The notes: a model not told the origin generated them from the letters alone. DNA of 64,000 nt from Candidatus Saccharimonadia bacterium (GCA_963717365.1 OY970327.1:927752-991751), one strand, 5' to 3'. Positions 16,130 to 40,353 are shown, numbered from the stretch's first letter. Numbers and translations are program-made.

Positions 16130-16474
16130 ATGATTTCCCGCAGGAACCGCTTCCACGGCTATAACTCGCTCAACCATGTCTATCGCACCGGCAAGTCCGT
16201 TCGTGGCGAATATCTGGGCTTACGTTATGTGTCGTCTAAGAAGCCCGACTACCGTCTGGCAGTAGTTGTAAGTAAAAAAGTAAGCAAGTCAGCTGTGGTA
16301 CGCAACCGTCTTCGCCGCAGGATTTACGAGACCGTTCGTCTGCATCGGTTGGAATCAGACACTGCCTGGCCGCGAGATATGATCATTAGTATCTTTGACG
16401 AGCGTGCCGTAGCGGCACCGTTTGTCGAACTTGAGACAAACGTCCGGCAGTTGATGGGCAAATCAGGCCTGTAG
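16130..16474 (+). CDS. rnpA: Ribonuclease P protein component
   Basis: 114 aa, basic. Contains RFHGYNSLNHVYRTGKSV, LAVVVSKKVSKSAVVRNRLRRRI (the RNR motif region). rpmH-rnpA-yidC synteny. Confidence 0.85.
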   Translation: MISRRNRFHGYNSLNHVYRTGKSVRGEYLGLRYVSSKKPDYRLAVVVSKKVSKSAVVRNRLRRRIYETVRLHRLESDTAWPRDMIISIFDERAVAAPFVELETNVRQLMGKSGL

Positions 16475-16536
16475 CCACGGGGTGGAATAATTGAGTACCG
16501 ACATGCTACAGTAGTAACAAGGAGTAAAGTAGTTTT

Positions 16537-18582: not shown

Positions 18583-21341
18583 TTTCTAAGTAGTAAATAA
18601 GTGGCTATCAAAATTATTATGATAATTACGCTCAGAGCCAGTAGTGTTTTGATTGTATCAAAACGGGCATATTTAGAAGTCTGCTTTGTCGCTAATTCGG
18701 ATTGATTGTCTGCTCCAGGCCCCGGAGTTAGATGAGCAGATATCATAGAGCCAAGTGCTGAGCCTGAGCCCGTGTCCTGAGAACTTTCAGCAACACTCGT
18801 TTCAGGATAAGTGGTTTGATTATCGTTTGGGTCTGAGCTTGATTCGACCTGAGTTGAAGGAGCCATGTCAGTAATCAAAGAATGTTCAGAATTTGCTATT
18901 GTTTCATTTGTCGGTGGGGTAGCTGGCGTCTCATCGATAAAGCCATCACAAGCATCATCGGTACCATCTTGGTCTTTGTCTTGCTGGGCCGGGTCAATAA
19001 AAAGACAGACCTCATCTTTATTGTCCACACTATCGCCGTCGATATCTGTTGCGGTAGCTGCTACGTAGACTATTTTTTGAACATCAATTGCTTCACCGGC
19101 TTTATTTTTTGTCTCCATATGAACGGTATGAAAGCCGGAGACTAGACCGCTAGGTATGGTAAAAGTACTGGTGAGCGCGCCGTTGCTATTTGCCGAGGGG
19201 CTGGTAAGTGTAACTGACTGAGAATCTATCCGGAGTACAGCATTACTATTTGGCAGAAGGTCTTTAGTTGTAAGAGTGACAGTTTGTCCCCGCGCAATGA
19301 CATTTTGAACCAAATTATCTTTAAATAGTATTTTCCGGGAAGCCAGCAGATAAGGTCCTGACCCAACTAAACTGTTTGCCCCCGCAAAAGAGGGCTCGAC
19401 AGTAGAGTGGTTAGCCGTCGGCATTGAGCTTTTAAAATTGTTGGTAGCACCGGCAATCGCATCGCTTAATAAACGGTGGCCAAGCTGGTTCGGGTGAAAG
19501 CTTTCGCGCCCAGTAAAGTAACCATCCAATGTATAGTCTCCGCCAATAGGTATAGAAAAGGATTTATCGTCACCGACAGTGACGCCATGGACGGCCACTT
19601 GACTGCTTTTAGTCTCGCAAAGACGGTAGCCTTCAAAGGCCTGCTCAACGTCAATGTATTTAACGCCTACCCTTGCCGCTGCAGCTTTTATAACAGAATT
19701 TAAATATTCTATGAGTTCATTAGAAAAACGAATTTCTGCCTGATCCAAACGGACATTTACGGCACAATTACCATTTGGGTCAGCTAAAGAAGGGTAGCCA
19801 ACTACATATATCGCTGCTCCGCTGCCTGCTCCGCTTTTTACACTCTCAAGCGTACTCACCAGCTGGTCAAACTTTGAATTAATAGTATAAACTACGTTCA
19901 AACGATCTTGCTGACTTGCGTAACATGTTCCGGGCGCCAAACAAGCAAGGATAATCTTGCCAAAACCAATGTCATTACCTGATATTGAAACCGTGACATG
20001 GGCGGGTTTATTGCGATCAATAAAATTTACCTGTGGCCGGTACCCCGGCAAGTAATTCGTCAGTATCTCATGGTCATGACTTGGATCGTTTCGCCCCTTT
20101 GACTGTGCGGCAGTCTCTGAGTAGTTATAACTAACAATGTCTTGGAGTCGAGCGCCAGAACAGGCAACCGACTGTACGCTATTGAGGGCAGTCCGTACAC
20201 CAAGCAGATAAGGGTACGACAAGGTTGATAAGTGGCAGCCGTTAAATGGCTGCCGTACATCAGTGCCAGGCTTGTAACTAAATGCCCCTTCTCCGGATGC
20301 GAATGAGTCACCGAGGGCCAGATAATCGAGCAAGGATTCCTTTTCGCCATAAGCTGTTAGCGTTAGGTAACTAAACTGACCGGTGGTTTTTCCGAGGTAA
20401 AGCCGGAGCGTATGGTTGGTACTAAAACGGACATGTCGGACGCCATTAAAATTTACAATCTGACTTTGCGCTAAGGGTAAAATATTTCTAAACTGACAAT
20501 TGGCTGACAATAAGGGATTAGCATTAGCGACGCACGTGGATAAATCATACAATCTGACAATGCCGTACGAAAGATCTGAAGTGAATACAAAACGTCCGTC
20601 GCCCGAAATTGCCGAAACAAAGTGCGGCCGGGTGCCTACCCCATGATTGTAGCCAGACTGGAATAATAGCGATTCGCCGGTTTCTAAATTAATACGCCGC
20701 ATACCTTGCATATGGATATCTCCAACTGCCCACTTGGCATTATCCGAGAAATATACTTCAGTGAGGTCTATTAGATTTCTTGCTGGGTCTGTTAGCCCAA
20801 CACCGGCAACACCAGATTTAAGTCGGTGGATAATTGTGCCATCTGGCTGAACTTCTGTAGTAATATTGTCCGCTACGTTCTTTATTAGATAGCGGTAAGA
20901 TCCATACAGTCCCCCGCTCATATATAAGGCGTCACGGCTGTTTGGGATTGGCTGCAAAGTTAAGTTACCGCCAGCAGAATTTTTAAGCGGTCCGGCAACT
21001 GAATGATCGTGTAGTCTAATTAAGTTATCTGTGGCAGACTGATGGCCAAAAGCAGTCTGAACGGCACAGACCTGACGTGAAATCTCGGCTTGAGCACCGG
21101 CTAATTTCTGGGGCGTGGTTACAAATTTTGTATTGGCGGCACAATCTTTATTGCTATAAGCAGGTAAAATATTTGCCGCCACATTGCTAGTCAACTCTTT
21201 AAAAATCGGTGCTTCAACCTTGAACCAGGCAGAGTCTGAAGTGGTTTGCGCGCTAGCTGAAGGCAGGCCAAGCAGTGCGGCAAACACCACTCCGGCTAAG
21301 GGCAATAAAAACCACTGGTAGTGAAATGTTGGCATACGCAT
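18564..21341 (-). CDS. Large secreted SGNH/GDSL-family hydrolase with thrombospondin-type-3-like Ca-binding repeat and C-terminal TM anchor
   Basis: Signal peptide LPLAGVVFAALLGLPSASA. SGNH block I is LALGDSFASGEG, with a later block ISGNDIGF and a C-terminal block HPNQLGH. D-rich repeat DIDGDSVDNKDEVCLFIDPAQQDKDQDGTDDACD. C-terminal TM plus RKWRRRL. Confidence 0.7.
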   Translation of the reverse strand: MRMPTFHYQWFLLPLAGVVFAALLGLPSASAQTTSDSAWFKVEAPIFKELTSNVAANILPAYSNKDCAANTKFVTTPQKLAGAQAEISRQVCAVQTAFGHQSATDNLIRLHDHSVAGPLKNSAGGNLTLQPIPNSRDALYMSGGLYGSYRYLIKNVADNITTEVQPDGTIIHRLKSGVAGVGLTDPARNLIDLTEVYFSDNAKWAVGDIHMQGMRRINLETGESLLFQSGYNHGVGTRPHFVSAISGDGRFVFTSDLSYGIVRLYDLSTCVANANPLLSANCQFRNILPLAQSQIVNFNGVRHVRFSTNHTLRLYLGKTTGQFSYLTLTAYGEKESLLDYLALGDSFASGEGAFSYKPGTDVRQPFNGCHLSTLSYPYLLGVRTALNSVQSVACSGARLQDIVSYNYSETAAQSKGRNDPSHDHEILTNYLPGYRPQVNFIDRNKPAHVTVSISGNDIGFGKIILACLAPGTCYASQQDRLNVVYTINSKFDQLVSTLESVKSGAGSGAAIYVVGYPSLADPNGNCAVNVRLDQAEIRFSNELIEYLNSVIKAAAARVGVKYIDVEQAFEGYRLCETKSSQVAVHGVTVGDDKSFSIPIGGDYTLDGYFTGRESFHPNQLGHRLLSDAIAGATNNFKSSMPTANHSTVEPSFAGANSLVGSGPYLLASRKILFKDNLVQNVIARGQTVTLTTKDLLPNSNAVLRIDSQSVTLTSPSANSNGALTSTFTIPSGLVSGFHTVHMETKNKAGEAIDVQKIVYVAATATDIDGDSVDNKDEVCLFIDPAQQDKDQDGTDDACDGFIDETPATPPTNETIANSEHSLITDMAPSTQVESSSDPNDNQTTYPETSVAESSQDTGSGSALGSMISAHLTPGPGADNQSELATKQTSKYARFDTIKTLLALSVIIIIILIATYLLLRKWRRRL

Positions 21342-21584: not shown

Positions 21585-22691
21585 TTATATGAGAGCTTCT
21601 TTATAGACATTAAGCGTCTGCTCGGCCATCGTTTGCCAGGAATATTTCTGAACTTGTTTGTGGCCGTTCAAGACTAGTTTTTTACATAATTTTGAGTCAT
21701 CAAGAACATCTTCAATAGCCGCTGCGGTTTCTTGCAAGCTATACGGATCAAAATAATGGGCTGCGTCCCCATAAACCTCAGGCAAACAAGTTGCGTCGCT
21801 GCTTACCAGCGGACAGCCATGCGCCATTGCTTCTAGGCCCGGCAGGCCAAAACCTTCACTTAACGAAGGCAGCACATAGGCAGCGGCATTTTCATATAGC
21901 CACTTCAGTTCATTGTCATCTATAAAGCCGGTAAAGCGGATAGACGAATAGGAAGAACGCTCCTTAGCCCATTGTTCAAGTTCTTTGAAATAAAATTCTT
22001 TTTTCCCAATCAACACCAGTGTCAGATCTGGTTTCCGTGTTAACAGTAGCTCAAACGCCTTAATTAGATGACGTAGATTCTTGTGGGGGAACGGGCTGCC
22101 AACATGCATAATGAACGGCTTTTTAATATCATCGAGCGGCTCTGCCGGCTGATGAATTGGCGGCTCACTGGCTTCGTAGGTGACAGCAGTTTTACCTCTG
22201 GTGAAGGGATATAAATCAGCCAGATCTTTGGCAACAAACCTAGTGGGTACGATAATTCGTTCACTTTTCTGATGGGCAACCAAAAACATGATCCGGTAGC
22301 CAAGTTTTTTTAGCCAGAAAATAGGTAGCGGCGTCTTTCCGGCACGTATAAACCGGAGCATAGTTAGGTCATGCGTGGTAGTTACTGTCCGTCCCTGGTA
22401 GGTAAGCGGCTGTTGGGTCATTGTAAAGTGAACTAAATCCGGCTGCAAGGAACGCAACTGGTAAGAAAATCGGAAATCATTCAAAGGGTTAAACGAAAAC
22501 TGAGGAAACGGACAAGGCTGGACGTCAAAATTCAGCGCTCGGGCGCGCCACGGGTCATCTGGCTGGACTAAAACGGTAAAACGATGGGAAGAGCGGGTGG
22601 TTTGCAAATGCTCAAGCAGGCGGTCGATATAACGCCCCGTGCTGGAACGGCGAATCCGCGCGTCAATGACAATATGTTTACTTTCACTCAT
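21585..22691 (-). CDS. Glycosyltransferase family 4 (GT-B, GT1/GT4 type)
   Basis: C-terminal GT-B motif is LPSLSEGFGLPGLEAMAHGCPLVSSDATCLPEV. 368 aa. Confidence 0.85.
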   Translation of the reverse strand: MSESKHIVIDARIRRSSTGRYIDRLLEHLQTTRSSHRFTVLVQPDDPWRARALNFDVQPCPFPQFSFNPLNDFRFSYQLRSLQPDLVHFTMTQQPLTYQGRTVTTTHDLTMLRFIRAGKTPLPIFWLKKLGYRIMFLVAHQKSERIIVPTRFVAKDLADLYPFTRGKTAVTYEASEPPIHQPAEPLDDIKKPFIMHVGSPFPHKNLRHLIKAFELLLTRKPDLTLVLIGKKEFYFKELEQWAKERSSYSSIRFTGFIDDNELKWLYENAAAYVLPSLSEGFGLPGLEAMAHGCPLVSSDATCLPEVYGDAAHYFDPYSLQETAAAIEDVLDDSKLCKKLVLNGHKQVQKYSWQTMAEQTLNVYKEALI

Positions 22692-22718
22692 ATAGGTACT
22701 GTTACAATTATACGAGCA

Positions 22719-24020
22719 ATGGATACATTTAAGAAATATCTGTACTGGACGGCTTTGGCGCTATTTATCTATATGCCTTTCCATATTTTTCTGTCCCAAT
22801 GGCTAAGTACTTACACGAACGGCCTGGACGCCTGGAAAATCGGCAAAGATGTCGTGACTGCCCTCCTTGTGGCAGCACTAGTCGGTACCGTACTATTGAC
22901 ACGAAAATACACTAAACCCTATCTGGTACTGCTTGGTTTTGCCGCCGTATATTTTTTGCTGCATATTGTATTGTGGTTTGGTACGAACCAGCCAAACGAT
23001 ACGGGCCTATTGGCAACCGTATATAATAACCGGCTGATCTGGTATGTGTTGATTGGTTACAGCTTGGCAATTTTGGCCCCCAAGCTGGCTAAGCCGCGTC
23101 GGTTAGTGGAAATATTCCTGATTATTAGCACAGTCGTAGCCGTACTGGGAATTGTCCAGCGATTTCTGCCGGCCGATTTCCTGACTAATTTTGGCTACAG
23201 TATCGAGCGGGGAGCCAAGCCTAGTTTTGCAATTGACGACAAGCCCGACCTGCCTCGAATTTTTTCCACCATCCGCGATCCAAATTCGCTTGGTGCATTT
23301 TTAATCTTGCCCTGCACGATTCTAGGGATGGCCTTGGTGCGCAGATGGCGTACCTCGGAGCGTATGCTTCTGGCAGGGTTGCTTATGCTGCACGTTCTGG
23401 CACTATTGCTGACTTTTTCGCGCAGCGCCTTGATCGGTGCGATTTTGGCGGGTATTGCCGGCTTAGCATTTATTTTCCGGCAATCCATCCGGGCACATCT
23501 ACATAAATTTGTATGGCTATCCGTCGCTTTATTTATCATGCTGGGCGGCATAGTATTTATTCTCCGCGACCAGTATGTCGTACAAAACGTAGTATTCCAT
23601 GCCGATGAGAGCACCACGCTGGATGATCCGCAGGAACTGCGCGTAGACTTCCTGCAAAAGGGACTGAACGGCGTGGCTGACAATCCGGAAGGAAATGGCC
23701 CCGGTACGGCAGGGCTGGTCTCTACGCGTCTGCCACAAGGTGGTCTGCTGACTGAAAATTACTATCTGCAGATTGCTTACGAAGTAGGTATTGCCGGCCT
23801 GCTGCTATTCCTGGCCTTTCTCAGTTTTGTACTGATACAGTTATGGACTCTTCGCCAGAACCGTATCGTCCAAGCGTTGCTTGCCAGTTTTGCCGGCCTG
23901 ACATTTATTAATCTGTTATTCCATGGCTGGAGCAACGAAGCGGTGGCGATTGCCTGGTTCATGCTGGCCGGTGTGGCGCTTGGCTCGCCTGTCAAGACGC
24001 TACAGCGGCTAAGTAAATAG
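22719..24020 (+). CDS. O-antigen ligase/polymerase-like (Wzy_C-type) polytopic membrane protein
   Basis: About 10-12 hydrophobic helices. The LLLTFSRSALIGAILAGIAG motif region is typical of O-antigen-ligase family loops. The start was moved from the track's 22584, which overlaps the divergent GT4 gene, to the ATG at 22719 (MDTFKKYLYW). Confidence 0.7.
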   Translation: MDTFKKYLYWTALALFIYMPFHIFLSQWLSTYTNGLDAWKIGKDVVTALLVAALVGTVLLTRKYTKPYLVLLGFAAVYFLLHIVLWFGTNQPNDTGLLATVYNNRLIWYVLIGYSLAILAPKLAKPRRLVEIFLIISTVVAVLGIVQRFLPADFLTNFGYSIERGAKPSFAIDDKPDLPRIFSTIRDPNSLGAFLILPCTILGMALVRRWRTSERMLLAGLLMLHVLALLLTFSRSALIGAILAGIAGLAFIFRQSIRAHLHKFVWLSVALFIMLGGIVFILRDQYVVQNVVFHADESTTLDDPQELRVDFLQKGLNGVADNPEGNGPGTAGLVSTRLPQGGLLTENYYLQIAYEVGIAGLLLFLAFLSFVLIQLWTLRQNRIVQALLASFAGLTFINLLFHGWSNEAVAIAWFMLAGVALGSPVKTLQRLSK

Positions 24021-24186: not shown

Positions 24187-25152
24187 TCATAAAGTAGGGA
24201 TTTTGGGCGGACGCCCAATGTGTAATATCTCTTCAAGCTGGTCAGAATGCAGCTTTCGGTTCTTTTGAATTGCGTGCCGGTCACGCAGTATGCCCGGCAG
24301 AAAGCCAATAAAACTGAAAACGGAGCGCAGCCAGACGTGCGGTTTTAGATCCATGAGCGAACGGGCGGTAGTGCGGGCAAACTGATACAGAAAAAACGGC
24401 AAATATTTCCAGTACAGCTTTGCCGGCATGTTTTTTGTATAGAGCATTAAAAAATTCTTAATTGAATGGTAGCGGGTAAAGTCGCCCAGTTTTGAGCTGG
24501 TACCGCCGACGTGGTGGTAGGCAACCGCGGACGGTATGTACATTACGCTCCAGCGGGCTAGCTGGGCTCGGAAAGAGATGTCCACGTCCTCAAAATAAGC
24601 AAAGAACCGTTCATCAAATAAGCCTATATCGCGGAACATTTTTGCATTGTATAAACTGGCTCCGCCAGAGGCTCCAAATACGATGTTCACCGTTTCGTAT
24701 TGCCCGGTATCTTTTTGGTTGCGCCCCCTGGGGAATGAAATGCCCCAAGTGGAATAATAATCGCCGGTACTGTCAATATGGATCTTGTCGTTGCGCATAA
24801 GTTTGCCGGTGATGATGCCGGCATCCGGATTTTCACGGAGTTGTTTTACCAGTTCTTCCAGCCAATTTTTGGTAGCAATGGCGTCGTTATTGAAGAGGGC
24901 TACCGCGTCAGCGCCATTATTAAGCGCGTGTTTAATGCCAATGTTAACCCCGCCCGCAAAACCATAATTCCGTCTCCTCTTTATAAGTTTTACCTCAGGG
25001 AAACGCTTCTCAATAATAGCCACAGAATCATCTTCTGAACCATTATCGACCACAATAATATATGCCTTCATGGACTGCGCCTGCAAAGACTTCAGGCAGT
25101 CAGCAATCATGTCAGCGCCGTTCCAGTTGGGAATTACAATAGCTGTCTTCAT
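24187..25152 (-). CDS. Glycosyltransferase family 2 (rhamnosyltransferase-like)
   Basis: AIVIPNWNGADMIADCLKSL, IIVVDNGSEDDS, LFNNDA and the DVDISFR (ED-like) motif are typical of GT-A/GT2. Confidence 0.85.
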   Translation of the reverse strand: MKTAIVIPNWNGADMIADCLKSLQAQSMKAYIIVVDNGSEDDSVAIIEKRFPEVKLIKRRRNYGFAGGVNIGIKHALNNGADAVALFNNDAIATKNWLEELVKQLRENPDAGIITGKLMRNDKIHIDSTGDYYSTWGISFPRGRNQKDTGQYETVNIVFGASGGASLYNAKMFRDIGLFDERFFAYFEDVDISFRAQLARWSVMYIPSAVAYHHVGGTSSKLGDFTRYHSIKNFLMLYTKNMPAKLYWKYLPFFLYQFARTTARSLMDLKPHVWLRSVFSFIGFLPGILRDRHAIQKNRKLHSDQLEEILHIGRPPKIPTL

Positions 25153-25267
25153 TTCTTATGTAATCTTACCACTTATGCGGCCCTCTTAAAGCCAATTCTT
25201 ACCTATCTGAGGTATCTTCGCTCAAAACTCCATAGAAGTACGCTATAATAAGGGGCAAGCAAACCAT

Positions 25268-26074
25268 ATGAAACATGTATTTTCTAAGCAAAACCGGGCG
25301 CTGCTTGCAGAACTGGTTAGAACCGATTTTAAACTTCGCTACCAAGGCTCGGTTCTTGGCTATGCCTGGTCGTTGCTACGTCCGTTGCTGTTATTTTTGA
25401 TTCTCTATATAATTTTTGCTAAATTTATAAAACTGGGCGGAAATATTCCATATTTTCCAATTTACCTGCTACTCGGTATTGTGCTCTGGACCTTTTTTGC
25501 CGATATGACCAGCCAAAGTCTTGGGTCTATCGTGGGACGCGGCGATCTTATTAGAAAAATTCGTATCCCGCGGTGGATAATCATTATCTCGTCCAGCGTA
25601 TCGGCACTCATTAATCTTGCGCTCAACATGCTGGTAGTCGTGATTTTTATGATCTTTAACAAAGTAGATCTGCTACAAACTACCTTGTGGTTGCCCCTGA
25701 TTTTAATCGAAGTATTTATACTGGGGCTTGGCCTGTCGCTCTTTTTGGCAGCCGCCTTTGTAAAATACCGCGATATCAGTTATATCTGGGAAGTAATTCT
25801 CCAGGCTGGATTTTACGTCACGCCGATCTTGTATGCCATGACATTTATCACCAATGTCGACTATCAGAAAATTTTACTTATGAACCCAATGGCCCAGGCA
25901 ATCCAGGATGCCCGCTACGCCGTGGTTTCACATCATCCTGACGTTATAACAATTGGTAGCGCGTTTAATAATGATTTGATTAGGCTAGTGCCGATTGGAA
26001 TGTGCGTACTGGCGCTAGTGGTTGGCGTGCTGTACTTCAAAAAAGAAGCCAAGAGCTTCGCGGAGAACTTGTAA
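25268..26074 (+). CDS. wzm: ABC-2 type polysaccharide exporter permease (Wzm/TagG-like)
   Basis: N-terminus ELVRTDFKLRYQGSVLGYAWSLLRPLL is the ABC-2 signature region. Six hydrophobic helices. Immediately followed by the ATPase. Confidence 0.85.
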   Translation: MKHVFSKQNRALLAELVRTDFKLRYQGSVLGYAWSLLRPLLLFLILYIIFAKFIKLGGNIPYFPIYLLLGIVLWTFFADMTSQSLGSIVGRGDLIRKIRIPRWIIIISSSVSALINLALNMLVVVIFMIFNKVDLLQTTLWLPLILIEVFILGLGLSLFLAAAFVKYRDISYIWEVILQAGFYVTPILYAMTFITNVDYQKILLMNPMAQAIQDARYAVVSHHPDVITIGSAFNNDLIRLVPIGMCVLALVVGVLYFKKEAKSFAENL

Positions 26075-27283
26075 ATGCCGGATAATATAGCGATAAAAAT
26101 CAGCCATCTGGATAAGTCTTTCAAGCTACCCCATGAAAGGCACTCGTCGCTTAAGGGCGCCTTCGTTAATATTCTTAAAACAAAGCGCACGTACGAAAAG
26201 CAACATGTTCTAAAAGACATTTCGTTTGAAATAAAAAAAGGGGAATTTTTTGGCATCGTCGGCCGCAACGGCAGCGGCAAGAGTACGCTCCTCAAGCTTC
26301 TGGCGGGGGTTTACTCGCCTGATAAGGGAGACATAAGTATAAATGGCAAACTTACTCCTTTTATTGAACTGGGCGTTGGCTTTAACCCTGAGTTGACTGG
26401 CCGTGAGAATGTCTTTCTAAACGGCGCGCTGCTTGGATTTTCGCGGAAAGAAACCGAGCTTCTCTATGACGAAATCGTAGAATTTGCAGAGCTTGAAAAT
26501 TTCATGGACCAGAAACTTAAAAATTATTCATCGGGTATGCAGGTGCGTCTGGCATTCTCGATTGCTATCCGGGCAAAAAGTGAAATTCTGTTGCTGGATG
26601 AAGTGCTGGCTGTGGGTGATGCTATCTTCCAAAAAAAATGCTACGACTATTTTAAGCAGCTCAAAAGAGATAAACGGACAGTCGTTTTTGTGAGCCATGA
26701 TACCGGCGCGTTGCAGGAGTACTGCGACAGCAGCGTACTGATTGAGGCCGGCGAACTTGTGTACAAAGGCGGCATCGACACCACAATTAAAAAGTATCTT
26801 GATATTGTTAATGAATCCGAAGACGAGACTGCTTCAGAAGAAGTGCGTACCAGATGGGGAACTGGTAAGGTACTCATTGATACGACCGAGATAATTCAGA
26901 ATAACAGTAAAAAGACCCGAAAACCGTTCCGGGAGGGCGAGTCCATCGAAGTTATTGTCAGCGCCACTGCCGCCGAAGACGTCATCAGCCCTGTTGTCGG
27001 CATTACACTACGGGACCTGACTGGCAAGATAATCTTTCAATCCAATACCTTATGGTGCCAGGTAAAAACCAATGACCGCAAAGCCGGCGAGACAATCAGG
27101 ATTGGCTGGAAAATCCCCAATGTCTTTAACACCGGGACGTACGCCATATCACCGGCAATTTCTGACTCGTCGGGTATTGAGGTGTATGATTGGCTGGAAG
27201 ATGCAGCCGAGTTTAAAGTTTCTAAAATACAAAAAAGCCACGCTGTTGTAAACTATGAGCATGAAATTAAGTTGCTGCCATGA
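26075..27283 (+). CDS. wzt: Polysaccharide ABC exporter ATP-binding protein with extended C-terminal domain (Wzt/TagH-like)
   Basis: Walker A is GIVGRNGSGKSTLL, the signature is YSSGMQVRLAFSIA and Walker B is ILLLDEVLAVGD. About 150 extra C-terminal residues lie beyond the NBD, where O-antigen-end-binding domains occur in Wzt proteins. Confidence 0.9.
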   Translation: MPDNIAIKISHLDKSFKLPHERHSSLKGAFVNILKTKRTYEKQHVLKDISFEIKKGEFFGIVGRNGSGKSTLLKLLAGVYSPDKGDISINGKLTPFIELGVGFNPELTGRENVFLNGALLGFSRKETELLYDEIVEFAELENFMDQKLKNYSSGMQVRLAFSIAIRAKSEILLLDEVLAVGDAIFQKKCYDYFKQLKRDKRTVVFVSHDTGALQEYCDSSVLIEAGELVYKGGIDTTIKKYLDIVNESEDETASEEVRTRWGTGKVLIDTTEIIQNNSKKTRKPFREGESIEVIVSATAAEDVISPVVGITLRDLTGKIIFQSNTLWCQVKTNDRKAGETIRIGWKIPNVFNTGTYAISPAISDSSGIEVYDWLEDAAEFKVSKIQKSHAVVNYEHEIKLLP

Positions 27284-28476
27284 ATAAGCTTCAGGACTTG
27301 CGGAATAATCTTGATTATATTCGTCCCGCCCAGAATCTTATTGTAGAAGAATCAGCTGGTTTTTGCGACGCCTGCGGCGGCTTTGGACCGTTTCAGTTCT
27401 CGCCAATTATTACCGATAAGTTGGCTAACGAATGGTCGCTCAATAAAAAAGAGCAACATGCTTTTAGCTCGCGCGAATCAATGTTTTGTGTATTTTGCGG
27501 CTGCTCGTACCGCCTTCGGGCGCTGGCCAAAGCTATTGTTATCGAAGCGGGCAAAAACCCTAAGCAGAGCCTAAAACAATTAATCAGCAAGACAGATTTG
27601 CAGGAATTTTCTATCGCCGAAATAAATTCTGCCGGAGTTTTGCATGATATATTGCGGCATAGCAAGAAGTTAACATACTCTGAATATTGCCCGGTGGATA
27701 AATCAGTTGAACATCAGGATCTTCACAACCTCACTTATAAGGACAATTCATTTGACATAGTGCTAACGTCGGATACGTTTGAACACGTGCCTGACTACGA
27801 GAAAGCCTTAGGAGAAATTTACCGAGTCCTAAAAACGGGCGGAAAACATATTTTTACCGTACCGATGCGAACTGATAAAAAAACGAAAAACCGCACCGTG
27901 CTGCAAAACGGCAAGCCAAAGTACATAGAAAAAAAGTCATACCACGGCTCAGGAGAACCTGATTACCTGGTTTGGAACGAATTTGGAGGGGATTTTATTC
28001 ACATACTCGAAAAAGTCGGGTTTAGCGTGCAATTATACTTTCAAAATACAATTCACCTGGAAGACCCAAGCTGCGTGATTGTGGCCGGCAAGCTCAAATC
28101 CGGCTCCAAGCCAGCCAGCCAGCCTGTAAAGGTCGATATGCGTTATAGCCAGCCAAACCATCTGGCGGACCTAAAAAGGACCTATAAATTAGACACCAAA
28201 ACGGTTGATATCGGAATAGATTTTGACGAACAATACCAGCTCAAAAAAGTTGGCGAACTTGCCAACAAGGTCAGGCTTACAGGCGAACATGCTAAAAATG
28301 TCGAGGATATTAGTAAGTCGTACTTCGCGGAGATTGAAAAACTCCGGAGGTACATTGAGTCGCAGAATACTGAACTAAAGGCTAAAGATAAAGAAATCGC
28401 CGTCTTCAACAGTTCGCTGACCGGGAAAGTTTACCGCAGCAAACACGCTATTAAGCGAAAGATCACAAAAGGTTAG
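27280..28476 (+). CDS. Class I SAM-dependent methyltransferase with N-terminal Cys4 ribbon and C-terminal coiled-coil
   Basis: Cys motifs CDACGG...CVFCGC. Methyltransferase motif FDIVLTSDTFEHVPDYEKALGEIYRVLKTGGKHIFTVP. The C-terminal heptad-like region is KVGELANKVRLTGEHAKNVEDISKSYFAEIEKLRRYIESQNTELKAKDKEI. It overlaps the wzt stop (ATGA). Confidence 0.75.
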   Translation: MNKLQDLRNNLDYIRPAQNLIVEESAGFCDACGGFGPFQFSPIITDKLANEWSLNKKEQHAFSSRESMFCVFCGCSYRLRALAKAIVIEAGKNPKQSLKQLISKTDLQEFSIAEINSAGVLHDILRHSKKLTYSEYCPVDKSVEHQDLHNLTYKDNSFDIVLTSDTFEHVPDYEKALGEIYRVLKTGGKHIFTVPMRTDKKTKNRTVLQNGKPKYIEKKSYHGSGEPDYLVWNEFGGDFIHILEKVGFSVQLYFQNTIHLEDPSCVIVAGKLKSGSKPASQPVKVDMRYSQPNHLADLKRTYKLDTKTVDIGIDFDEQYQLKKVGELANKVRLTGEHAKNVEDISKSYFAEIEKLRRYIESQNTELKAKDKEIAVFNSSLTGKVYRSKHAIKRKITKG

Positions 28477-29806
28477 TTGGCTTTGTGGCGAGAGTCTCAA
28501 TAGTTTTTGAGAGTGCTGCCACCCAGTCACGCTGGATAGTGGATTTTTGCGCATTTTCGGCCCGTTTTGAGCCGCTGAGTTTTGAAGCTTCCAAAATAGC
28601 ATTCTTGAAAGCTTCTTTTTCTATATCCGCTATAAAAATGTTTTCGGAATACGAACTCAAATCCTGTTTAGTCTCCCATTTCGTTGTTACAACTGCAGCG
28701 CCTGCGGAAGCAAATTCCAACGTTGGATAGTTAGGGTGCGGCGCCATCATAGGTGATATCGCCAAGTCGGTAGACTGTACAAGTTCGTAATAATTTTGCA
28801 TATCCATTTTGCCTAAGTTAGTAATCTTAACTCCGGAGGGAAGCACGGTATCGGCTAAACTATCCTGGCCAGCCATACAAACCTCCCATTCGGTTGGCAT
28901 AAGCTGGCTGTCGGCAAACAGTTCGTCGACCGCTGTCAGGGCGAAATAAAATAAGTTTCGCGCCACAGATGGCCGCCCGTAAATAAACATTTTTTTCTTA
29001 CCGCCCTTGGTGCTCATCTGGTTGCCTACCGCGCTTACTGCCACGGCCGGCTCAAACCAAATGCCTTCTTTTTCTATGCGCTGGTAACCTTTGCTTGCCA
29101 TAAACGTATGCATAAGACGGGTATTGCAAACCGGTATAAAGCGGTCGCTTTTATATGTCCGTTCGGCTAAAACATATTTGTCGCTATTGTTATAGAAAAT
29201 CGGTTCGTAATCCTGGATAAGGTAGATGTACTTGCTCTGGAGCGGCAGCTGGTCCAGCAAGTGGGCGTCCCACCAGGCCGAAGCCATGTAGATATCCTGT
29301 GGATGGATGTCCAGATATCCATAGTGGTTGTAGCGCCGTGCCGCTAAATCCACCAGGACAATTTTATCCTCGCTTACCGTAATATTATTAGCCGCGAAAA
29401 AAGCCGTTAATTGAGAGGTTCTGGCACCGCCGTGCCGCAAGGTTTCTACTATGCGTAGCCGGTAGCCTTTTTTGTTGGCTAATAATCCCGCTAGTATCAA
29501 CGCTGTTGCTGTACCGCCAAAAAAAGAGCTGTTCTGGAGAGATGGTATTAACAAGGTGACATATGGTTGCCGGCCCGCGAGCGGCAACGCGGGATGAATA
29601 GGTGTAATTTCTGATAATGCCTCAGCTGCCATCTTCTCAAATAGAATAGTGTCATGAATTTTAATAGTAGGGTCAGTGCCATGGATAACACGGTCCGCTT
29701 TCTGCTCCACTCGCCCCGAGAAATTAGATGCCTTAGTAGAAAGCTTGCGGGTGATATGGGCAGCCTTTCTGACTCCGCGAAAGACGTTCGCTTTCTTATT
29801 ATTCAC
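28463..29806 (-). CDS. Putative glycosyltransferase (WsaF/rhamnosyltransferase-like GT-B), low-confidence function
   Basis: 447 aa. GGTATALILAGLLANKKGYRLRIV and the C-terminal PNYPTLEFASAGAAVVT resemble GT-B folds. Operonic with the GT2 gene upstream (4-nt overlap). Confidence 0.5.
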   Translation of the reverse strand: MNNKKANVFRGVRKAAHITRKLSTKASNFSGRVEQKADRVIHGTDPTIKIHDTILFEKMAAEALSEITPIHPALPLAGRQPYVTLLIPSLQNSSFFGGTATALILAGLLANKKGYRLRIVETLRHGGARTSQLTAFFAANNITVSEDKIVLVDLAARRYNHYGYLDIHPQDIYMASAWWDAHLLDQLPLQSKYIYLIQDYEPIFYNNSDKYVLAERTYKSDRFIPVCNTRLMHTFMASKGYQRIEKEGIWFEPAVAVSAVGNQMSTKGGKKKMFIYGRPSVARNLFYFALTAVDELFADSQLMPTEWEVCMAGQDSLADTVLPSGVKITNLGKMDMQNYYELVQSTDLAISPMMAPHPNYPTLEFASAGAAVVTTKWETKQDLSSYSENIFIADIEKEAFKNAILEASKLSGSKRAENAQKSTIQRDWVAALSKTIETLATKPTNLL

Positions 29807-30642
29807 CTCATAAACTCCGTAATTTTAGGCAGGAACGGATCACCTTTAGCCAGGTCATACCCATTCATATATGAACCGTAGGAATGATAGAAGTCAACAT
29901 AGGGGACAGGCTTGTAGGCGCGCGACTGGCTTTCCTTATGGATTATATGCCCGCCGCCCTGGTACCATGTTTGGTAGCCTTTTTTATTGAGACGGATACA
30001 GAGGTCAACGTCGCCACCACAAATAATGAAGCGCTCATCGAAGCCGCCGACCGAATCAAATTTCTTCCGTTCAATCATCTGGACGGCGCCGGTCACTGCT
30101 GTCATGGGGCGCGAGGCGTTCACATCGTAAGGAAATTCTTTACTATTAGCTTCCTGAACAGCTTTTTTATAAGATTTTCCAACGTATACGTGGTCGCCAA
30201 GGATGCCGGGCCGCAGGAAAACCCCACCGTGCTGGATAGTTTTACCGTCTCCATAAAGCAAGAGGCAGCCCACCATCCCAAGAGTGGGCCGGATAGCTTG
30301 CTTATGCATTTTCTCAAGCAGCCCCACTGAATTAACCGTGAACTCAGTATCGTTGTTGAGGAACAATATTGTGGAACCGGCGCTCTGCTTTACGGCCCAG
30401 TTATTTAGCTTTTGGTAATTAAAAGGCTGGTTATATTCGACTATTTTCGCGTTTTTAACGTCCGCTAAGAGCTTTTTAAGCTCTTGCAGTTCGCTTTGCG
30501 AGGAATTGTTGCTTATTAACAAAAATTCCGTTACACCAGGACCATGTTCGACGAACGAAGTTACGGCTTGGGCCGTCATTTTTGCTTTGTCTTTAAAGGG
30601 AATAATAACAGATATATCTAAGGCCAGATTTTTTTCACTCAT
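29803..30642 (-). CDS. Glycosyltransferase family 2
   Basis: ISVIIPFKDKAKMT, ILFLNNDTEF and GGDVDLCIRL are typical GT2 motifs. Confidence 0.8.
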   Translation of the reverse strand: MSEKNLALDISVIIPFKDKAKMTAQAVTSFVEHGPGVTEFLLISNNSSQSELQELKKLLADVKNAKIVEYNQPFNYQKLNNWAVKQSAGSTILFLNNDTEFTVNSVGLLEKMHKQAIRPTLGMVGCLLLYGDGKTIQHGGVFLRPGILGDHVYVGKSYKKAVQEANSKEFPYDVNASRPMTAVTGAVQMIERKKFDSVGGFDERFIICGGDVDLCIRLNKKGYQTWYQGGGHIIHKESQSRAYKPVPYVDFYHSYGSYMNGYDLAKGDPFLPKITEFMR

Positions 30643-30679: not shown

Positions 30680-33034
30680 TTAGTAGCTTGACCCGGTCGG
30701 CGAGTTGCTTATGAAAGAATCGCTCGCTCCGAAAGTATTGTTTGCATTGCCTCCAAGGTTGCGGTAGGTTGAAAAATCGCCTATAGGATGTTTTTGGCCA
30801 TCTTTTCCGTAGTAAATTGTCCCTTTGTGGTAGGCGAAAGATGCTGTTACGGAAGATAGGGGTATATTGTTTAGCAATGTGGTATCAAATGTTTGATAAC
30901 TGGTAGGGTTTATCCCCCATAAAGCGTTTACCCCTGGCGTGGCAGATATCTTTGTGCCATCTAGTGTGATGATGTATTTGTTTGAGACCGCATCAGAGGC
31001 CAGATAAGGTAATTCTTTTATAGTTTGGGTGTAGTAAGTAAATGCTTGAGTGTCTACACCATAAACGCGATTCATGCTTAATCTAAAGGTAGAAAAGTCT
31101 GACATATTACCCAGACTATAGGCAATATTATTCGAGCCAACCACGTATATGGCGGGGTTAGTGGAGAACTTAATGGAAGCACCGGGGTTAAGAACACCTG
31201 GGCCAATACCAATTCCGGAGATTGAGTCACCTGAAACTCCAAAAACATTTTGAGCCAAAGATCCACTGAGCAGGAACTCACTTATTGAGTAGAAGTAATT
31301 TACTTTACCGTTTTCAACTTTAAATATAGCGCCCGAAGGGAGTTGCCATGTGCTGGCGCTAGTAACGGGCACTACGGGAATACGATCTACCAGAGCCGTG
31401 AAATTCGTGGCATCGGTAGGCATTGGCCAAGAAGTACTAACACTGGTAAGGTCAAATTTCCTATACTGGTCAACTAAGTACTTTTTACCACCGTAGGATA
31501 TTAAGGGAGGGGGTATTGAGCTAACTACTGTGGGTGGAGTCGAATTATACGCCGATATATTATCTCCAAATACCTTATCATTCGCAGTGAACCAAGACCG
31601 GAAAGACGTAAAGGAAGGTATAGCGTAGTAGTTATTATTTAAATAGTAATAAATTGCAGGTGAAGCCGCGAACTTAACGAGTGAACTATTTTGGGAATAA
31701 CTCCGTCCCATTTGTTGCGAAGCATTGAGCTGCGTACCAACAGCTGAGACACTACCCCATCCATAACCCTTATCAAAAAGTGCCTGGGGGCTTAAGAAGG
31801 GCTCTTTCTTACCGTTATTTAACAAATACACGGTTCCCTGATGGTTCATTAAAGGCTGCAATGTTCCAGCAGGCGCAAGAATAGCTGCAAGCTGGGGAGT
31901 TAGGACTGCAACGTTATTAACGCAGTCGATAGCCCAGTGGACGCATGCGCTGCCCGAGGGGATGCCGTAACGGCGGCCGTTATCGGCCATATAAACAGTC
32001 CCATCGCCCTCTATTCTTAGCGCATTTGTCAGTAAGCCGCCATTTTGTAGGCTGCCCAGATATATGTCAGATACTGGAGTAACGGGCGTACTGGCCAGAC
32101 CGTAAGCATCTAACACGTTTCCGCTTGGAACGGCGTACTTCCTGCCTTCATGGACTAAGTATACTGTTGATCCGCTACCCATTTGGAGGAGAGTAGTAGC
32201 GACCGGATTGCCGAACCAATCGTTAAACAACCGCCAGAAATTACGGTTACCGTAGGCGCTGCATCCATCCCCGGTGCCGTATAAATTAGCTAAAGCAGCC
32301 GCATTGGGCTGGTATGGCGTATAAATATACAGGCCTGAGGTCGCTTGGTTTTGCACATAGACATTGGTACCACCACAATTAGCGTTAGGATTATACTGGA
32401 TGTAACTGGTAACAAATGGCCGGTAACTAGTAAATATGTGCCCATCCTGGGCGTAACGCTTAAACTGGCGCGCGCCGAAATAGACCTGCTTGAAGAAACC
32501 GGCAAAATTCGGATCACAAGCTGCTGTGTCGGGGCAGGCATAACCTGTTGCAGCGTTGTATTGCTTGCTCCACGGCCAATCATCAGTTACCAGTGATTGT
32601 TCCTTCTGGAGCGTGATAAGTATTACTTTTTGATTAATACCACAACTCATCCCGACTTCATATATAATCTGTGCAGCGGATTTATGCCCACCGGAAAAAC
32701 CGTTACACAGGCCGTCGCCCGCTATAGCATGAGTATCCTGCCGGTAATCTTTCATGCACGTATAAGGCGGGGGATAGCCCTTGGATGCACCGTAAGCGCC
32801 AGCCGTCGTTCCTGCGTATGGCTGCGAGCCATTAGTATCACAGTTAGGTACCTTGGAATTTAGAAAAGCCTGAACCTGGTTAGCATCCATCCCGTTGCCG
32901 TTAAAAAATATTGCGTCATCGGCAATGCGCCCGGCCTGAAACTCTGATCCGGATAACGCCTTAGCAGCATTGGCTGGAATAACGGACAGACATCCGATAC
33001 CCAGTACAACTAGCATTAATAGTTTTAGTTTCAT
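30680..33034 (-). CDS. Large secreted protein, unknown function (possible glycan/cell-wall-active N-terminal domain)
   Basis: Signal peptide LMLVVLGIGCLSVIPANA. The N-terminal region includes SAAQIIYEVGMSCGINQKVILITLQKEQSLV, reminiscent of muramidase/glucosaminidase-type modules. The long Gly/Tyr/Asn-rich C-terminal part has repeated ...YLV/YAIPS... segments. Confidence 0.6.
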   Translation of the reverse strand: MKLKLLMLVVLGIGCLSVIPANAAKALSGSEFQAGRIADDAIFFNGNGMDANQVQAFLNSKVPNCDTNGSQPYAGTTAGAYGASKGYPPPYTCMKDYRQDTHAIAGDGLCNGFSGGHKSAAQIIYEVGMSCGINQKVILITLQKEQSLVTDDWPWSKQYNAATGYACPDTAACDPNFAGFFKQVYFGARQFKRYAQDGHIFTSYRPFVTSYIQYNPNANCGGTNVYVQNQATSGLYIYTPYQPNAAALANLYGTGDGCSAYGNRNFWRLFNDWFGNPVATTLLQMGSGSTVYLVHEGRKYAVPSGNVLDAYGLASTPVTPVSDIYLGSLQNGGLLTNALRIEGDGTVYMADNGRRYGIPSGSACVHWAIDCVNNVAVLTPQLAAILAPAGTLQPLMNHQGTVYLLNNGKKEPFLSPQALFDKGYGWGSVSAVGTQLNASQQMGRSYSQNSSLVKFAASPAIYYYLNNNYYAIPSFTSFRSWFTANDKVFGDNISAYNSTPPTVVSSIPPPLISYGGKKYLVDQYRKFDLTSVSTSWPMPTDATNFTALVDRIPVVPVTSASTWQLPSGAIFKVENGKVNYFYSISEFLLSGSLAQNVFGVSGDSISGIGIGPGVLNPGASIKFSTNPAIYVVGSNNIAYSLGNMSDFSTFRLSMNRVYGVDTQAFTYYTQTIKELPYLASDAVSNKYIITLDGTKISATPGVNALWGINPTSYQTFDTTLLNNIPLSSVTASFAYHKGTIYYGKDGQKHPIGDFSTYRNLGGNANNTFGASDSFISNSPTGSSY

Positions 33035-33042: not shown

Positions 33043-33582
33043 CTATTTGACTTCAAATTTTCTAGGATCTGACATGCCGGTTGCCGATAGCGAGTCATAT
33101 TTAATTGATACAGACCACTCGCCCTTACTTGTAAATTCGCCAATCGGCACACTAGCCGTGGGGCAGTATACGGATTTTCCTTCTTTGACCCCGGCAACTT
33201 TCCGGGTAATAACAACACTGGCTTTAGTAAAGGTTGTCGTGCACTCTCCACCGTCTTCAAAAACATCTGATACCACTCCGGCAACATCAATTGTGGCGGC
33301 AGTTTGATTTATGTAAGTAACCAGGGGTTTAACGCTCCGCTTGCTCCCTGCTGGTGCCTGGGCTTGTTTTTCGAGCAATTTCTCTCTTTCAAGGATTCGC
33401 TCTTTATTATCAGCTGCAGCTTGTTTGTCTTCTTCTCTCGGAGGGTCAAGATTCACTGACTCGCCCGCATCAGGCGTATTGGTAGGCCGGGAAGAATCAT
33501 ACCGGATATACGCAAACGCAAGTGCTCCGATTAAGGCCGCAGGCAATAGAATGAATAGTATGATTTTTTTCTTATTTTTCAT
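33043..33582 (-). CDS. Membrane-anchored small extracytoplasmic protein, paralogue A
   Basis: N-terminal TM helix IILFILLPAALIGALAFAYI. The C-terminal ~95-aa domain aligns by eye with the 35149..35706 product (KP-VTY...V-G-V--V-EDGG-C...C...EF--KG-WSV...S...G-SD-R--E-K). Confidence 0.6.
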   Translation of the reverse strand: MKNKKKIILFILLPAALIGALAFAYIRYDSSRPTNTPDAGESVNLDPPREEDKQAAADNKERILEREKLLEKQAQAPAGSKRSVKPLVTYINQTAATIDVAGVVSDVFEDGGECTTTFTKASVVITRKVAGVKEGKSVYCPTASVPIGEFTSKGEWSVSIKYDSLSATGMSDPRKFEVK

Positions 33583-33694: not shown

Positions 33695-35140
33695 ATGAAA
33701 ATATCCATTGGCAAATTGACTCGTAAACATCGCTATAAGCCGTATACTCTATTTGTAATCCTAGCTCTTGTCTTCGGTACTTTTTTTGCTCTTTTGGTCC
33801 CACCATTTTGGGGAGCTGATGAGTCTACTCATTTTGCGCGCGTATATGATATATCGGAAGGCCATCCTCTCCCCAGGCCTGTATCAACGGGAGGATATGG
33901 GAATCAACAGCCAGCTAATTTAGTGGAACTTCTAAAATACTCACTTAATGATGTAGAAAATATTCAAACACAAAAACCCTTTTACGATAGAAATGATATA
34001 GACAACGATAATATGTATAAGACTTATGAGAGTCAAAAATTTAGCGCTCAGCAAGCAGAGCATGACTTTACGGGTGCGGCAGGCTCATTTCCTGCCGCGT
34101 ACGCCGGACCGCTTACAGGCACCTTATTCGCACGCGCGTTACATCTTAACATTGGTCAAACATTAACAGCAGCTCGACTACTTAATTTACTCACATACGT
34201 TATATTGGTAGCCGCCGCACTTCTTATTCTTAGGAATAGCAAGTGGGCTTGGCCAATGTTTATTATTGGGCTTTTTCCGATGGCTATTTTCCAGGCCTCA
34301 ATAGTCAGTGTGGATCCGCTTTCAACCGGTTTGGTCTTTATATTTTTTAGCTTATTAATAACTGTTTGGGCCAAGAAAACAATTATTACAAAATGGGAAA
34401 TACTCGCATTCCTATTTCTTGCCGCCGCAATCCCTCTCACTAAGCAGCCGTATTTTATTCTTTTATTACCCCTCCTCTTGCTACCGCATAAAAAGTGGAC
34501 CTTAAAAAAACACTCATATATATTTAAAGTAAGTTTTTTCGCCCTTCTAGTGACACCTATGCTTGCGTGGGTTCAGATTATCAAAGATATTTCTGTCGCA
34601 GGGCTGTCATCCTTACGAGGATCAGAGATTGCTTCACAGGTTAGCACTTCCGGCCAGATAAAGTACATTATTACTCATCCACTCGATTTTACAGAAGTAT
34701 TCTTCCAATCTATAGTGCAATTTGATGGCTACTGGGTAGGTGGAATATTTGGGCTACTGGGTTGGAATGTTGTCGGACTTTCGAGCATACTGGTATTGCT
34801 TCTAGCTTCTGCCTTGGTCTTAGCCACATTTTACGCTAAAGAAGACAATATAAAAGAGAAGAATTTAGTTAGGAACTTGTCTATATTGTTTTGTTCTGTT
34901 GGGTGTGTAGTTTTTACAATCGTTATCTTTTATCTTGTATACACGCCCGTGGGGTATGACCTCATCGAAGGCGTACAAGGGAGGTATTTTATTCCGGCTA
35001 TTCCATTCATTGTTTATGGTATAGGTAAAATTGTACCTATACGTGTACTTATGTCTGAAAGAGCCGCAACAGTATTATTTAGCTCTGTTGCTATGATTGG
35101 TCTCTTAGGATCATTGCTTATTTATCGCGCAGTCTTATAG
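33695..35140 (+). CDS. DUF2142-family polytopic membrane protein (GT-C-like, glycan-locus associated)
   Basis: VPPFWGADESTHFARVYDISEGH is the characteristic DUF2142 N-terminal motif. More than 10 TM helices. Confidence 0.7.
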   Translation: MKISIGKLTRKHRYKPYTLFVILALVFGTFFALLVPPFWGADESTHFARVYDISEGHPLPRPVSTGGYGNQQPANLVELLKYSLNDVENIQTQKPFYDRNDIDNDNMYKTYESQKFSAQQAEHDFTGAAGSFPAAYAGPLTGTLFARALHLNIGQTLTAARLLNLLTYVILVAAALLILRNSKWAWPMFIIGLFPMAIFQASIVSVDPLSTGLVFIFFSLLITVWAKKTIITKWEILAFLFLAAAIPLTKQPYFILLLPLLLLPHKKWTLKKHSYIFKVSFFALLVTPMLAWVQIIKDISVAGLSSLRGSEIASQVSTSGQIKYIITHPLDFTEVFFQSIVQFDGYWVGGIFGLLGWNVVGLSSILVLLLASALVLATFYAKEDNIKEKNLVRNLSILFCSVGCVVFTIVIFYLVYTPVGYDLIEGVQGRYFIPAIPFIVYGIGKIVPIRVLMSERAATVLFSSVAMIGLLGSLLIYRAVL

Positions 35141-37306: not shown

Positions 37307-37308
37307 GG

Positions 37309-40346: not shown

Positions 40347-40353
40347 GGATGGG

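Follow-up and report, generated by a model that had tools for sequence, protein, structure and literature searches.

Does a methyltransferase encoded directly behind a polysaccharide exporter terminate the exported glycan, and does its C-terminal helix influence the length at which it does so? This question is raised by three consecutive plus-strand genes in a 64,000-nucleotide stretch of DNA, referred to below as the window, from a Candidatus Saccharimonadia bacterium (GCA_963717365.1 OY970327.1:927752-991751). The genes encode a 268-residue ABC-2 type polysaccharide exporter permease (wzm, 25268-26074), a 402-residue ABC exporter ATPase (wzt, 26075-27283), and a 398-residue candidate chain-terminating methyltransferase (MT; 27280-28476). 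An earlier note on this DNA proposed that the MT caps the growing chain, that a heptad-rich segment of the MT serves as a ruler, and that a domain added to Wzt recognizes the cap, as in the E. coli O9a pathway and its terminator WbdD, but here in a monoderm or candidate phyla radiation (CPR) type cell envelope. We favor, with moderate confidence, the view that wzm, wzt, and the MT gene form the export-and-termination module of an ABC-transporter-dependent, rhamnose-containing surface glycan, in which a stalk and anchor resembling those of WbdD bias capping toward a minimum length. Taken by parts, sequence comparisons make it likely that the MT is a terminator acting together with the carbohydrate-binding module (CBM) of Wzt, and the ruler component, which we draw by analogy from the architecture of the protein, is tentative.

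The exporter, the methyltransferase, and its C-terminal extension

The stop codon of wzm abuts the start codon of wzt (TAAATG), and a 4-bp overlap (ATGA) joins wzt to the MT gene, indicating that the three genes form a translationally coupled operon. The three open reading frames and the overlap of the last two are as the earlier note had drawn them. A TATAAT box (25244-25249), a candidate promoter element, and the purine-rich AAGGGG (25250-25255) lie upstream of the wzm ATG in the intergenic region (25153-25267) that separates wzm from a divergent family 2 glycosyltransferase (GT2) gene on the minus strand. All named close homologs of the window proteins belong to Candidatus Saccharimonadales, indicating that the guess of a CPR-type host was right.

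Wzm matched the ABC2_membrane family of Pfam (PF01061; E = 1e-12) and, weakly, the galactan Wzm/RfbD model of NCBIfam, and in every related locus it is encoded immediately before Wzt. In Wzt, a nucleotide-binding domain (NBD; residues ~32 to 245, with the Pfam ABC_tran match at residues 46 to 177) and a linker helix (residues 234 to 252) are followed by the C-terminal CBM. This all-beta module (residues 259 to 389; 26849-27241, plus strand) matched Wzt_C (PF14524) with an E value of 4e-24 and a score of 85.6 bits, against a gathering cutoff of 30.4, and the 120 best-matching homologs of Wzt among the proteins searched all carried PF14524. In phmmer searches of PDB sequences, full-length Aquifex aeolicus Wzt (8DKU/7K2T) aligned to residues 32 to 389 (E = 1e-73); the NBD matched that of A. 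aeolicus Wzt (E = 9e-62) and TagH/TarH (E ~ 1e-48), and the last 155 residues alone matched the crystal structures of the A. aeolicus carbohydrate-binding domain (CBD; 6O14/8DKY; E = 2e-6). An AlphaFold2 model based on 62 homologs (pLDDT, 82.8) contained nine beta strands between residues 266 and 401. Its top Foldseek matches were again 8DKU/7K2T (E = 8e-39; 35% identity over ~400 columns; TM score of 0.8 on the target), of which 8DKU is the WzmWzt transporter bound to native O antigen. A. aeolicus WzmWzt (6M96, 7K2T, 8DKU; CBD, 6O14) is the best match in both sequence and structure and for both the NBD and the CBD, although overall identity is only 35% and the CBD is far more diverged than the NBD, as expected since the CBD is a glycan-specific module. 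With its permease, NBD, and Wzt_C domain, the window pair belongs to the family of Wzm/Wzt-CBM exporters, and the ~150 residues that the earlier note had seen beyond the NBD are indeed CBM-like.

The AlphaFold2 model of the MT, obtained from a 107-sequence alignment (mean pLDDT, 95.9; pTM, 0.90), comprises a Cys4 domain (residues ~26 to 76), a Rossmann core (residues ~108 to 271), a small variable beta/alpha insert (residues 283 to 309), and two helices (residues 317 to 378 and 380 to 397). The N-terminal domain (27355-27507, plus strand) is zinc ribbon-like, of the CxxC...CxxC type. Its four cysteines, C29, C32, C70, and C73, showed no variation among 26 aligned homologs and were conserved to 90% or more in the 107 sequences, bearing out the Cys4 ribbon proposed previously, and W52, R65-E66, R78, and R80 were kept in both alignments. 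A Pfam search extended to E values of 10 assigned the Cys4 domain to no family and returned merely sub-threshold zinc-ribbon noise (E > 0.1). The Rossmann core (27601-28092, plus strand) was matched by Methyltransf_11 at residues 142 to 192 (E = 9e-14; profile positions 45 to 95 only), and comparisons with NCBIfam models and PDB sequences afforded weak, sub-threshold matches to the same segment, those in the PDB being limited to residues 115 to 208. In the 26-sequence alignment, S134-E135 at the end of beta2 and S164-D165 in motif IV were nearly invariant, and the polar residues H122, D159, E168, H169, R182, and H222 were invariant. Comparison of the model with the PDB by Foldseek returned 621 matches with E values of 1e-3 or lower, the top 50 of which all displayed the class I MT fold (TM scores of ~0.25 to 0.3 on the query). 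The MT is thus predicted to adopt the fold of class I S-adenosylmethionine (SAM)-dependent methyltransferases, with an acidic beta2 end and a motif IV but without a canonical motif I. Neither a kinase domain nor a glycosyltransferase (GT) domain was found in the MT by Pfam searches, the whole protein has no transmembrane segment, and WbdD was absent both from its PDB sequence matches (E ≤ 1) and from the top 50 Foldseek matches.

The first C-terminal helix, referred to below as the stalk, is a single helix of 62 residues according to the DSSP assignment of the model (residues 317 to 378; 28228-28413, plus strand). It opens with the family motif [WQ]Q..[KR][IVL]..L..K..L[TS]..H..N[LI]E and continues with about eight heptads, with V324, L327, V331, T334, A338, V341, S345, Y348, I352, L355, I359, Q362, L366, K369, I373, and F376 in the a/d register. 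The 3.5-residue hydrophobic periodicity of this helix was significant in comparison to shuffled sequences (z = 4.7), and a/d positions were hydrophobic in 13/18 cases versus 39% overall, in agreement with the heptad-rich segment noted earlier. In stalk alignment A3, L19, H23, and N26 (alignment numbering) were invariant. The stalk is followed by a basic helix (residues 380 to 397; 28417-28470, plus strand; LTGKVYRSKHAIKRKITK) with a net charge of +7, which is a candidate membrane- or partner-binding tail. All 45 long-form homologs (341 to 404 residues) combine the stalk motif, a proline-free heptad-periodic helix, and a tail with a net charge of +3 to +8. The C-terminal extension had no Pfam match at E values up to 10. 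Searching 1.84 billion representative proteins with a stalk-tail profile returned 49 matches, and the 10 scanned matches lying outside the family comprised 1 sulfotransferase, 6 methyltransferases (Methyltransf_24 or Methyltransf_11), 1 GT4, 1 GT2, and 1 protein with no Pfam match. Quantization of the stalk length in heptads or hendecads was considered and rejected, the length distribution being continuous in the 45 long forms.

Related loci and fused forms

Searching species-representative genomes with the 26-sequence MT alignment identified at least 541 related loci, and the counts of locus context given below rest on the 80 best of these. No dedicated Pfam or NCBIfam model exists for the family, designated Cys4-MT here. 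In loci encoding the long form, the cassette consists of GT4, (Wzy_C), and GT2 genes, followed by Wzm, Wzt (with Wzt_C), and MT genes, followed in turn by genes for a WsaF-like enzyme, a GT2, a ~780-residue protein, and a ~180-residue protein. The order GT2|Wzm-Wzt(Wzt_C)-MT|WsaF-GT2 was found in all seven distinct long-form loci (the window, L001/L008, L002, L006, L007, L009, and L086), in which MT identity ranged from 41 to 55%. Short forms of the MT (252 to 303 residues), which do not have the extension, likewise come immediately behind a CBM-bearing Wzt; their hosts are other Patescibacteria, Pyrinomonadaceae (Acidobacteriota), and Abditibacterium. The gene that follows the short-form Cys4-MT encodes another class I MT, of canonical type (MT2). 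In no fewer than 25 of the 80 best loci, MT2 adjoins or is fused with Cys4-MT. In short-form Patescibacteria, a coiled coil and a basic tail are present on MT2, and the MT2 of locus L012 carries the stalk motif of the window MT (ELTANHVYNLE). These observations indicate that the stalk and tail form a module that can be placed on either partner.

Fused proteins of 631 to 2,388 residues display a common order, namely, an N-terminal Cys4-MT, MT2, obvious coiled-coil repeats, and GT2, GT4, or RgpF modules. They were found in Pirellulales (L018, 1,563 residues), in Chloroflexota/Dehalococcoidia (L024, L041, and L042, up to 2,388 residues), and in deltaproteobacteria (L031 and L053), and three of these loci (L018, L024, and L041) adjoin Wzm/Wzt genes. 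The Pirellulales protein (L018:1228-5919) contains two copies of Cys4-MT, one at each end, around MT2, a coiled coil, GT2, and GT4. In the largest protein, from Dehalococcoidia (L041:7953-15119), a radical SAM/SPASM module precedes Cys4-MT, MT2, a coiled coil, RgpF, GT4, GT2, and GT4; a radical SAM module is unusual in a glycan terminator-polymerase.

Comparative genomics provides, at the level of sequence, the strongest evidence that the MT is a terminator. Orthologs of the window MT are locked to the Wzm-Wzt(CBM) cassette, and distant relatives are fused via coiled coils to polysaccharide GTs, which argues against orthology to ordinary small-molecule MTs, the finding that the earlier note had named as fatal to its proposal. 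Among the 80 best loci, 16 have Wzm/Wzt genes at a distance of 3.5 kb or less, and a further 35 show a GT gene nearby or a long, possibly multidomain MT open reading frame. The CBM diverges faster than the NBD among the compared loci: at comparable NBD identity, CBM identity to the window is 0.47 to 0.60 for long-form loci versus 0.29 to 0.44 between long forms and short forms with MT2. This pattern is weakly consistent with a CBM that tracks the chemistry of the cap.

Proposed chain termination and its alternatives

The mechanism that we propose would begin at the cytoplasmic face of the membrane, where a WbaP-like initiator would start the glycan on a polyprenyl-phosphate carrier. The chain would be extended by GT4, GT2, and WsaF-like transferases using dTDP-rhamnose provided by the rmlABCD products. 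The MT would then O-methylate the nonreducing terminal sugar, thereby stopping elongation, and the CBM of Wzt would recognize the methyl cap and license export by Wzm/Wzt, after which a Wzy_C-type enzyme would transfer the exported chain to an acceptor. The heptad helix may oligomerize the MT, and the basic tail may tether it at the membrane or at the polymerase complex. The catalytic head would in this manner be held ~50 to 90 Å away, and capping would be biased toward chains above a minimum length.

Several parts of this scheme are known from characterized systems. Like the window, the WbdD-WbdA system of E. coli O9a/O8 (K. pneumoniae O3/O5) combines an ABC-2 exporter, an ATPase with a C-terminal Wzt_C domain, a separately encoded polymerase, and a terminator that is a protein in its own right, in which an N-terminal catalytic head precedes a coiled coil (in the window MT, a predicted heptad-periodic helix) and the C terminus is basic or amphipathic; the cap is expected to be of the methyl type here too. 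As judged from the PDB sequence and fold searches, the heads are nevertheless nonhomologous beyond the class I MT fold, and the window MT has no kinase, so that it does not belong to the WbdD family. Unlike WbdD, it also has an additional Cys4 domain, and its motif I is atypical. The hosts and polymers differ as well, since the window comes from a monoderm-like CPR bacterium and its polymer is probably of the rhamnan type, whereas the O9a/O8 polymer is a polymannose.

A close parallel in gene content is provided by the S-layer glycan (slg) cluster of the monoderm Geobacillus stearothermophilus NRS 2004/3a, in which the wzm, wzt, and wsaE genes overlap one another. The terminal rhamnose is 2-O-methylated there by the MT domain at the N terminus of WsaE, and Wzt has been proposed to bind the capped chain (PMC2943079). 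In the same cluster, WsaF makes a β1,2-rhamnose linkage, WsaB (of the Wzy_C type) transfers the glycan onto protein, and WsaP is homologous to WbaP (PMC2943079). The window likewise contains an MT gene overlapping wzt, a WsaF-like protein with a PHPxYPxLE signature, a Wzy_C protein, a WbaP-like protein, and rmlABCD. This likeness is one of gene content and arrangement. WsaE is an MT fused to two rhamnosyltransferase domains, whereas the window MT stands alone with its stalk and tail; having no GT domains, it is not WsaE-like in architecture. The parallel parts lists indicate that termination logic of this kind has a published precedent in a monoderm. The suggestion of the earlier note that the logic extends to monoderm envelopes is therefore not new.

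The layout of a terminator, a coiled coil, and a GT polymerase is also that of K. pneumoniae O12 WbbB and O7 ORF6, and some O7 orthologs "ended after the coiled-coil" (PMC11231755), as does the window MT. The O12/O7 order is matched by the fused relatives of the window MT in L018, L024, L031, L041, and L053, which place Cys4-MT and MT2 before the coiled coil and GT2, GT4, or RgpF modules. The window MT itself differs from WbbB and ORF6-O7 by the lack of GT modules and by a single MT head, and terminator chemistry differs too, WbbB adding β-Kdo and ORF6-O7 adding methyl-phosphate by the combination of an MT and a kinase. According to the literature, many bacteria terminate glycans of various classes in a manner recognizable from a coiled-coil protein encoded beside a CBM-bearing transporter, mainly with methyl or methyl-phosphate caps (PMC11231755, PMC10629545). 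Since this strategy has already been described as widespread, the window system adds a member to a known scheme.

Several observations weigh against the proposed mechanism or parts of it. Motif I of the MT reads I-A-E-I-N-S-A-G (consensus, AEINSCGxLH) instead of ExGxGxG, with E114 and G119 alone retained, and the Pfam MT match is confined to the second half of the profile. In 29 of the 80 best loci, neither Wzm/Wzt nor a GT was found nearby within the limits of detection, and one gammaproteobacterial Cys4-MT locus resembles small-molecule metabolism, indicating that the Cys4-MT core domain is not exclusively a glycan terminator. The divergence of the CBM could equally be explained by phylogeny. 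With respect to length measurement, the stalk spans at most ~93 Å (62 × 1.5 Å), or ~55 Å if its conserved first third packs on the head, as may be the case for the polar-rich motif formed by its first ~25 residues. At no more than ~90 Å, it is short in comparison to the WbdD trimer, whose coiled coil spans ~200 Å (PMC5082667). The distance from the conserved His to the C terminus varied continuously from 38 to 67 residues in the 45 long forms, with one outlier at 99. Finally, the hydrophobic moment of the tail (0.48) was not significant in comparison to shuffled sequences (p ~ 0.07), so that membrane binding is suggested mainly by charge and by analogy.

An alternative explanation is that the MT caps the chain but the helix only oligomerizes, anchors, or docks the enzyme (for example, on Wzt, the WsaF-like GT, or the membrane). 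Chain length would then follow, without being measured, from how terminator and polymerase are balanced in kinetics or stoichiometry. In favor of this explanation, the conserved polar motif (T334, H337, and N340) takes up the first third of a short stalk, the stalk length varies in a continuous manner, short-form Cys4-MTs work without a stalk of their own, and chain length in E. coli O9a also depends on the WbdD:WbdA stoichiometry (cited in PMC11231755). We nonetheless consider this explanation rather unlikely. The short-form Patescibacteria do keep a coiled coil and basic tail, on the adjoining MT2, and fused proteins always have the coiled coil between the MT heads and the GT modules, which is the geometry of proven rulers (PMC11231755). 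It is less probable still, and in our estimation distinctly improbable, that the MT decorates residues inside the repeat unit, or another envelope molecule, the CBM then reading a different feature, such as a cap added by the MT encoded at 37309-38094. In favor of such a role, the locus encodes this second, unrelated class I MT, and Cys4-MT proteins in the broader family are usually paired with MT2. However, the MT is translationally coupled to wzt, a CBM-bearing Wzt remains its immediate neighbor in three phyla, and Cys4-MT occupies the coiled-coil-distal end of the polymerase fusions, which is the position of the terminator in all studied systems (PMC11231755).

That the MT is an ordinary small-molecule methyltransferase located beside the exporter by chance appears highly improbable. 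In its favor, the top-ranking database entries carry generic names ("class I SAM-dependent methyltransferase"), weak matches in NCBIfam and the PDB point to sarcosine, UbiE, and phosphoethanolamine MTs, and some distant relatives lie outside glycan loci. These weak matches are, however, far below family cutoffs and confined to the shared Rossmann half, and a small-molecule enzyme is contradicted by the synteny in 7/7 ortholog loci, the existence of GT fusions, and the ATGA overlap with wzt. Wzt carries a CBM fold, the MT has a long heptad-periodic helix at its C terminus, and its orthologs are tied to the exporter cassette, so that termination by the MT is well supported by context. The ruler part of the proposal of the earlier note was derived from architecture only, with a short stalk and a tail of nonsignificant amphipathicity, and did not fare as well.

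Extended to the whole family, our preferred reading of the MT as a terminator with a stalk would make the Cys4-MT domain the mark of a large family of O-methyltransferases, so far uncurated, that terminate glycan chains; the family would be represented by the at least 541 loci in many phyla, with a stalk-tail that is exchanged between positions (on MT2, fused to Cys4-MT in Saccharimonadales, or before GT polymerases). The window MT might then be the smallest known WbdD-type ruler, controlling the size of a rhamnan with a methyl cap, which a Wzy_C enzyme would link to a protein or lipid at the surface of these epibiotic cells. We regard this combined proposal as possible but doubtful. Saccharibacteria are obligate epibionts, and to our knowledge their surface chemistry and glycans are essentially uncharacterized. 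The cassette predicts that many of them may display a length-controlled, methyl-capped, rhamnose-containing glycan following the logic of Gram-negative O antigens and Gram-positive S-layer glycans, thereby defining what glycan analysis and studies of attachment to the host could specifically look for. For the polysaccharide field, the Cys4-MT proteins constitute an uncharacterized putative terminator family with a noncanonical motif I and no curated model, and their stand-alone, split, and fused architectures form a natural series for examining the idea of a coiled-coil ruler, including a very small protein. The points of interest are therein the minimal stalk, the exchange of the stalk-tail between partner MTs, and the occurrence in Saccharimonadales. 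Nothing is overturned, as specialists already expect terminators combining an MT and a coiled coil beside a CBM-bearing Wzt across bacteria.

The surrounding glycan genes

Downstream of the MT gene, a convergent gene encodes the WsaF-like GT-B rhamnosyltransferase (28463-29806, minus strand; 447 residues; WsaF_N, E = 3e-22; WsaF_C, E = 5e-38), with a 14-bp overlap at the 3' end of the MT gene. PHPNYPTLE in this protein matches PHPSYPPLE, the rhamnose signature of WsaF (PMC2943079). It is accompanied by a GT2 (29803-30642, minus strand; 279 residues; PF00535), which occupies the same position in L001, L002, and L086. On the other side, the GT2 divergent from wzm (24187-25152, minus strand; 321 residues; PF00535, E = 4e-26), whose position is conserved, also matched an NCBIfam rhamnosyltransferase subfamily (1e-19, below the cutoff). 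Beyond it are located the gene for the Wzy_C/O-antigen-ligase-like polytopic membrane protein (22584-24020, plus strand; PF04932, E = 2e-11), also present in L086, and that for a GT4 (21585-22691, minus strand; 368 residues; PF00534, E = 2e-33), conserved in L001, L002, and L086. The Wzy_C protein is a candidate for the ligase or O-oligosaccharyltransferase that acts on the exported glycan, and the true start of its gene is probably downstream of the listed start of the open reading frame.

The dTDP-L-rhamnose pathway is encoded on the minus strand at 42516-47845, as judged from Pfam matches, by rmlA (42516-43379; NTP_transferase), rmlD (45403-46269; RmlD_sub_bind), rmlC (46272-46826; dTDP_sugar_isom), and rmlB (46823-47845; GDP_Man_Dehyd/Epimerase), with unrelated genes interspersed. 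The candidate initiator is a WbaP/WsaP-like polyprenyl-phosphate hexose-1-phosphate transferase (55104-56528, minus strand; Bac_transf, E = 1e-56; CoA_binding_3). A second sub-cluster (36083-41370, minus strand) encodes a GT4, the canonical class I MT mentioned above (37309-38094), a UDP-GlcNAc 2-epimerase, an FnlB-like protein, and an FnlA/CapE-like protein. The window thus encodes an FnlA/B/C-like UDP-2-acetamido-6-deoxyhexose pathway, and the enzymes of the sub-cluster point to a 2-acetamido-2,6-dideoxy-L-hexose component of the FucNAc, QuiNAc, or RhaNAc type. The MT of this sub-cluster was considered as an ortholog of MT2 and rejected as too distant a relative, since it matched fused MT2 domains with E values of only ~1e-8 and did not match the MT2 of locus L003.

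Other genes adjoin the cassette. A 784-residue protein with a signal peptide (30680-33034, minus strand) and a 179-residue protein with a hydrophobic N-terminal segment (33043-33582, minus strand) belong to no Pfam family and have counterparts of ~770 to 796 and ~182 to 189 residues in L001, L002, and L086; they could be a surface protein or acceptor or a glycan processing factor. A 925-residue secreted GDSL/SGNH-hydrolase-like protein (18564-21341, minus strand) combines a signal peptide with an acidic region of low complexity and a C-terminal transmembrane anchor. It may act as an O-acyl esterase or transferase on the glycan, and its gene flanks the cassette in L002 and L086 too. A DUF2142 polytopic membrane protein (33695-35140, plus strand; E = 2e-50) adjoins the cassette and could be a GT-C-like extracytoplasmic glycan-modifying enzyme.

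The region at 11767-17981 contains recF-like, dnaN, and dnaA genes on the minus strand, followed by yidC and a KhpB/Jag-like gene. The window therefore lies in the region of the chromosomal origin, with the glycan island beginning immediately next to it. Finally, an Rfam tRNA match on the minus strand (58266-58379; 52 bits), which was not called by ARAGORN, covers 114 nucleotides for a 71-position model. Its variable-arm region, which separates the anticodon stem from the T stem, holds an insertion of ~42 nucleotides, and its anticodon loop, CUCCAAA, contains the anticodon CCA (Trp).

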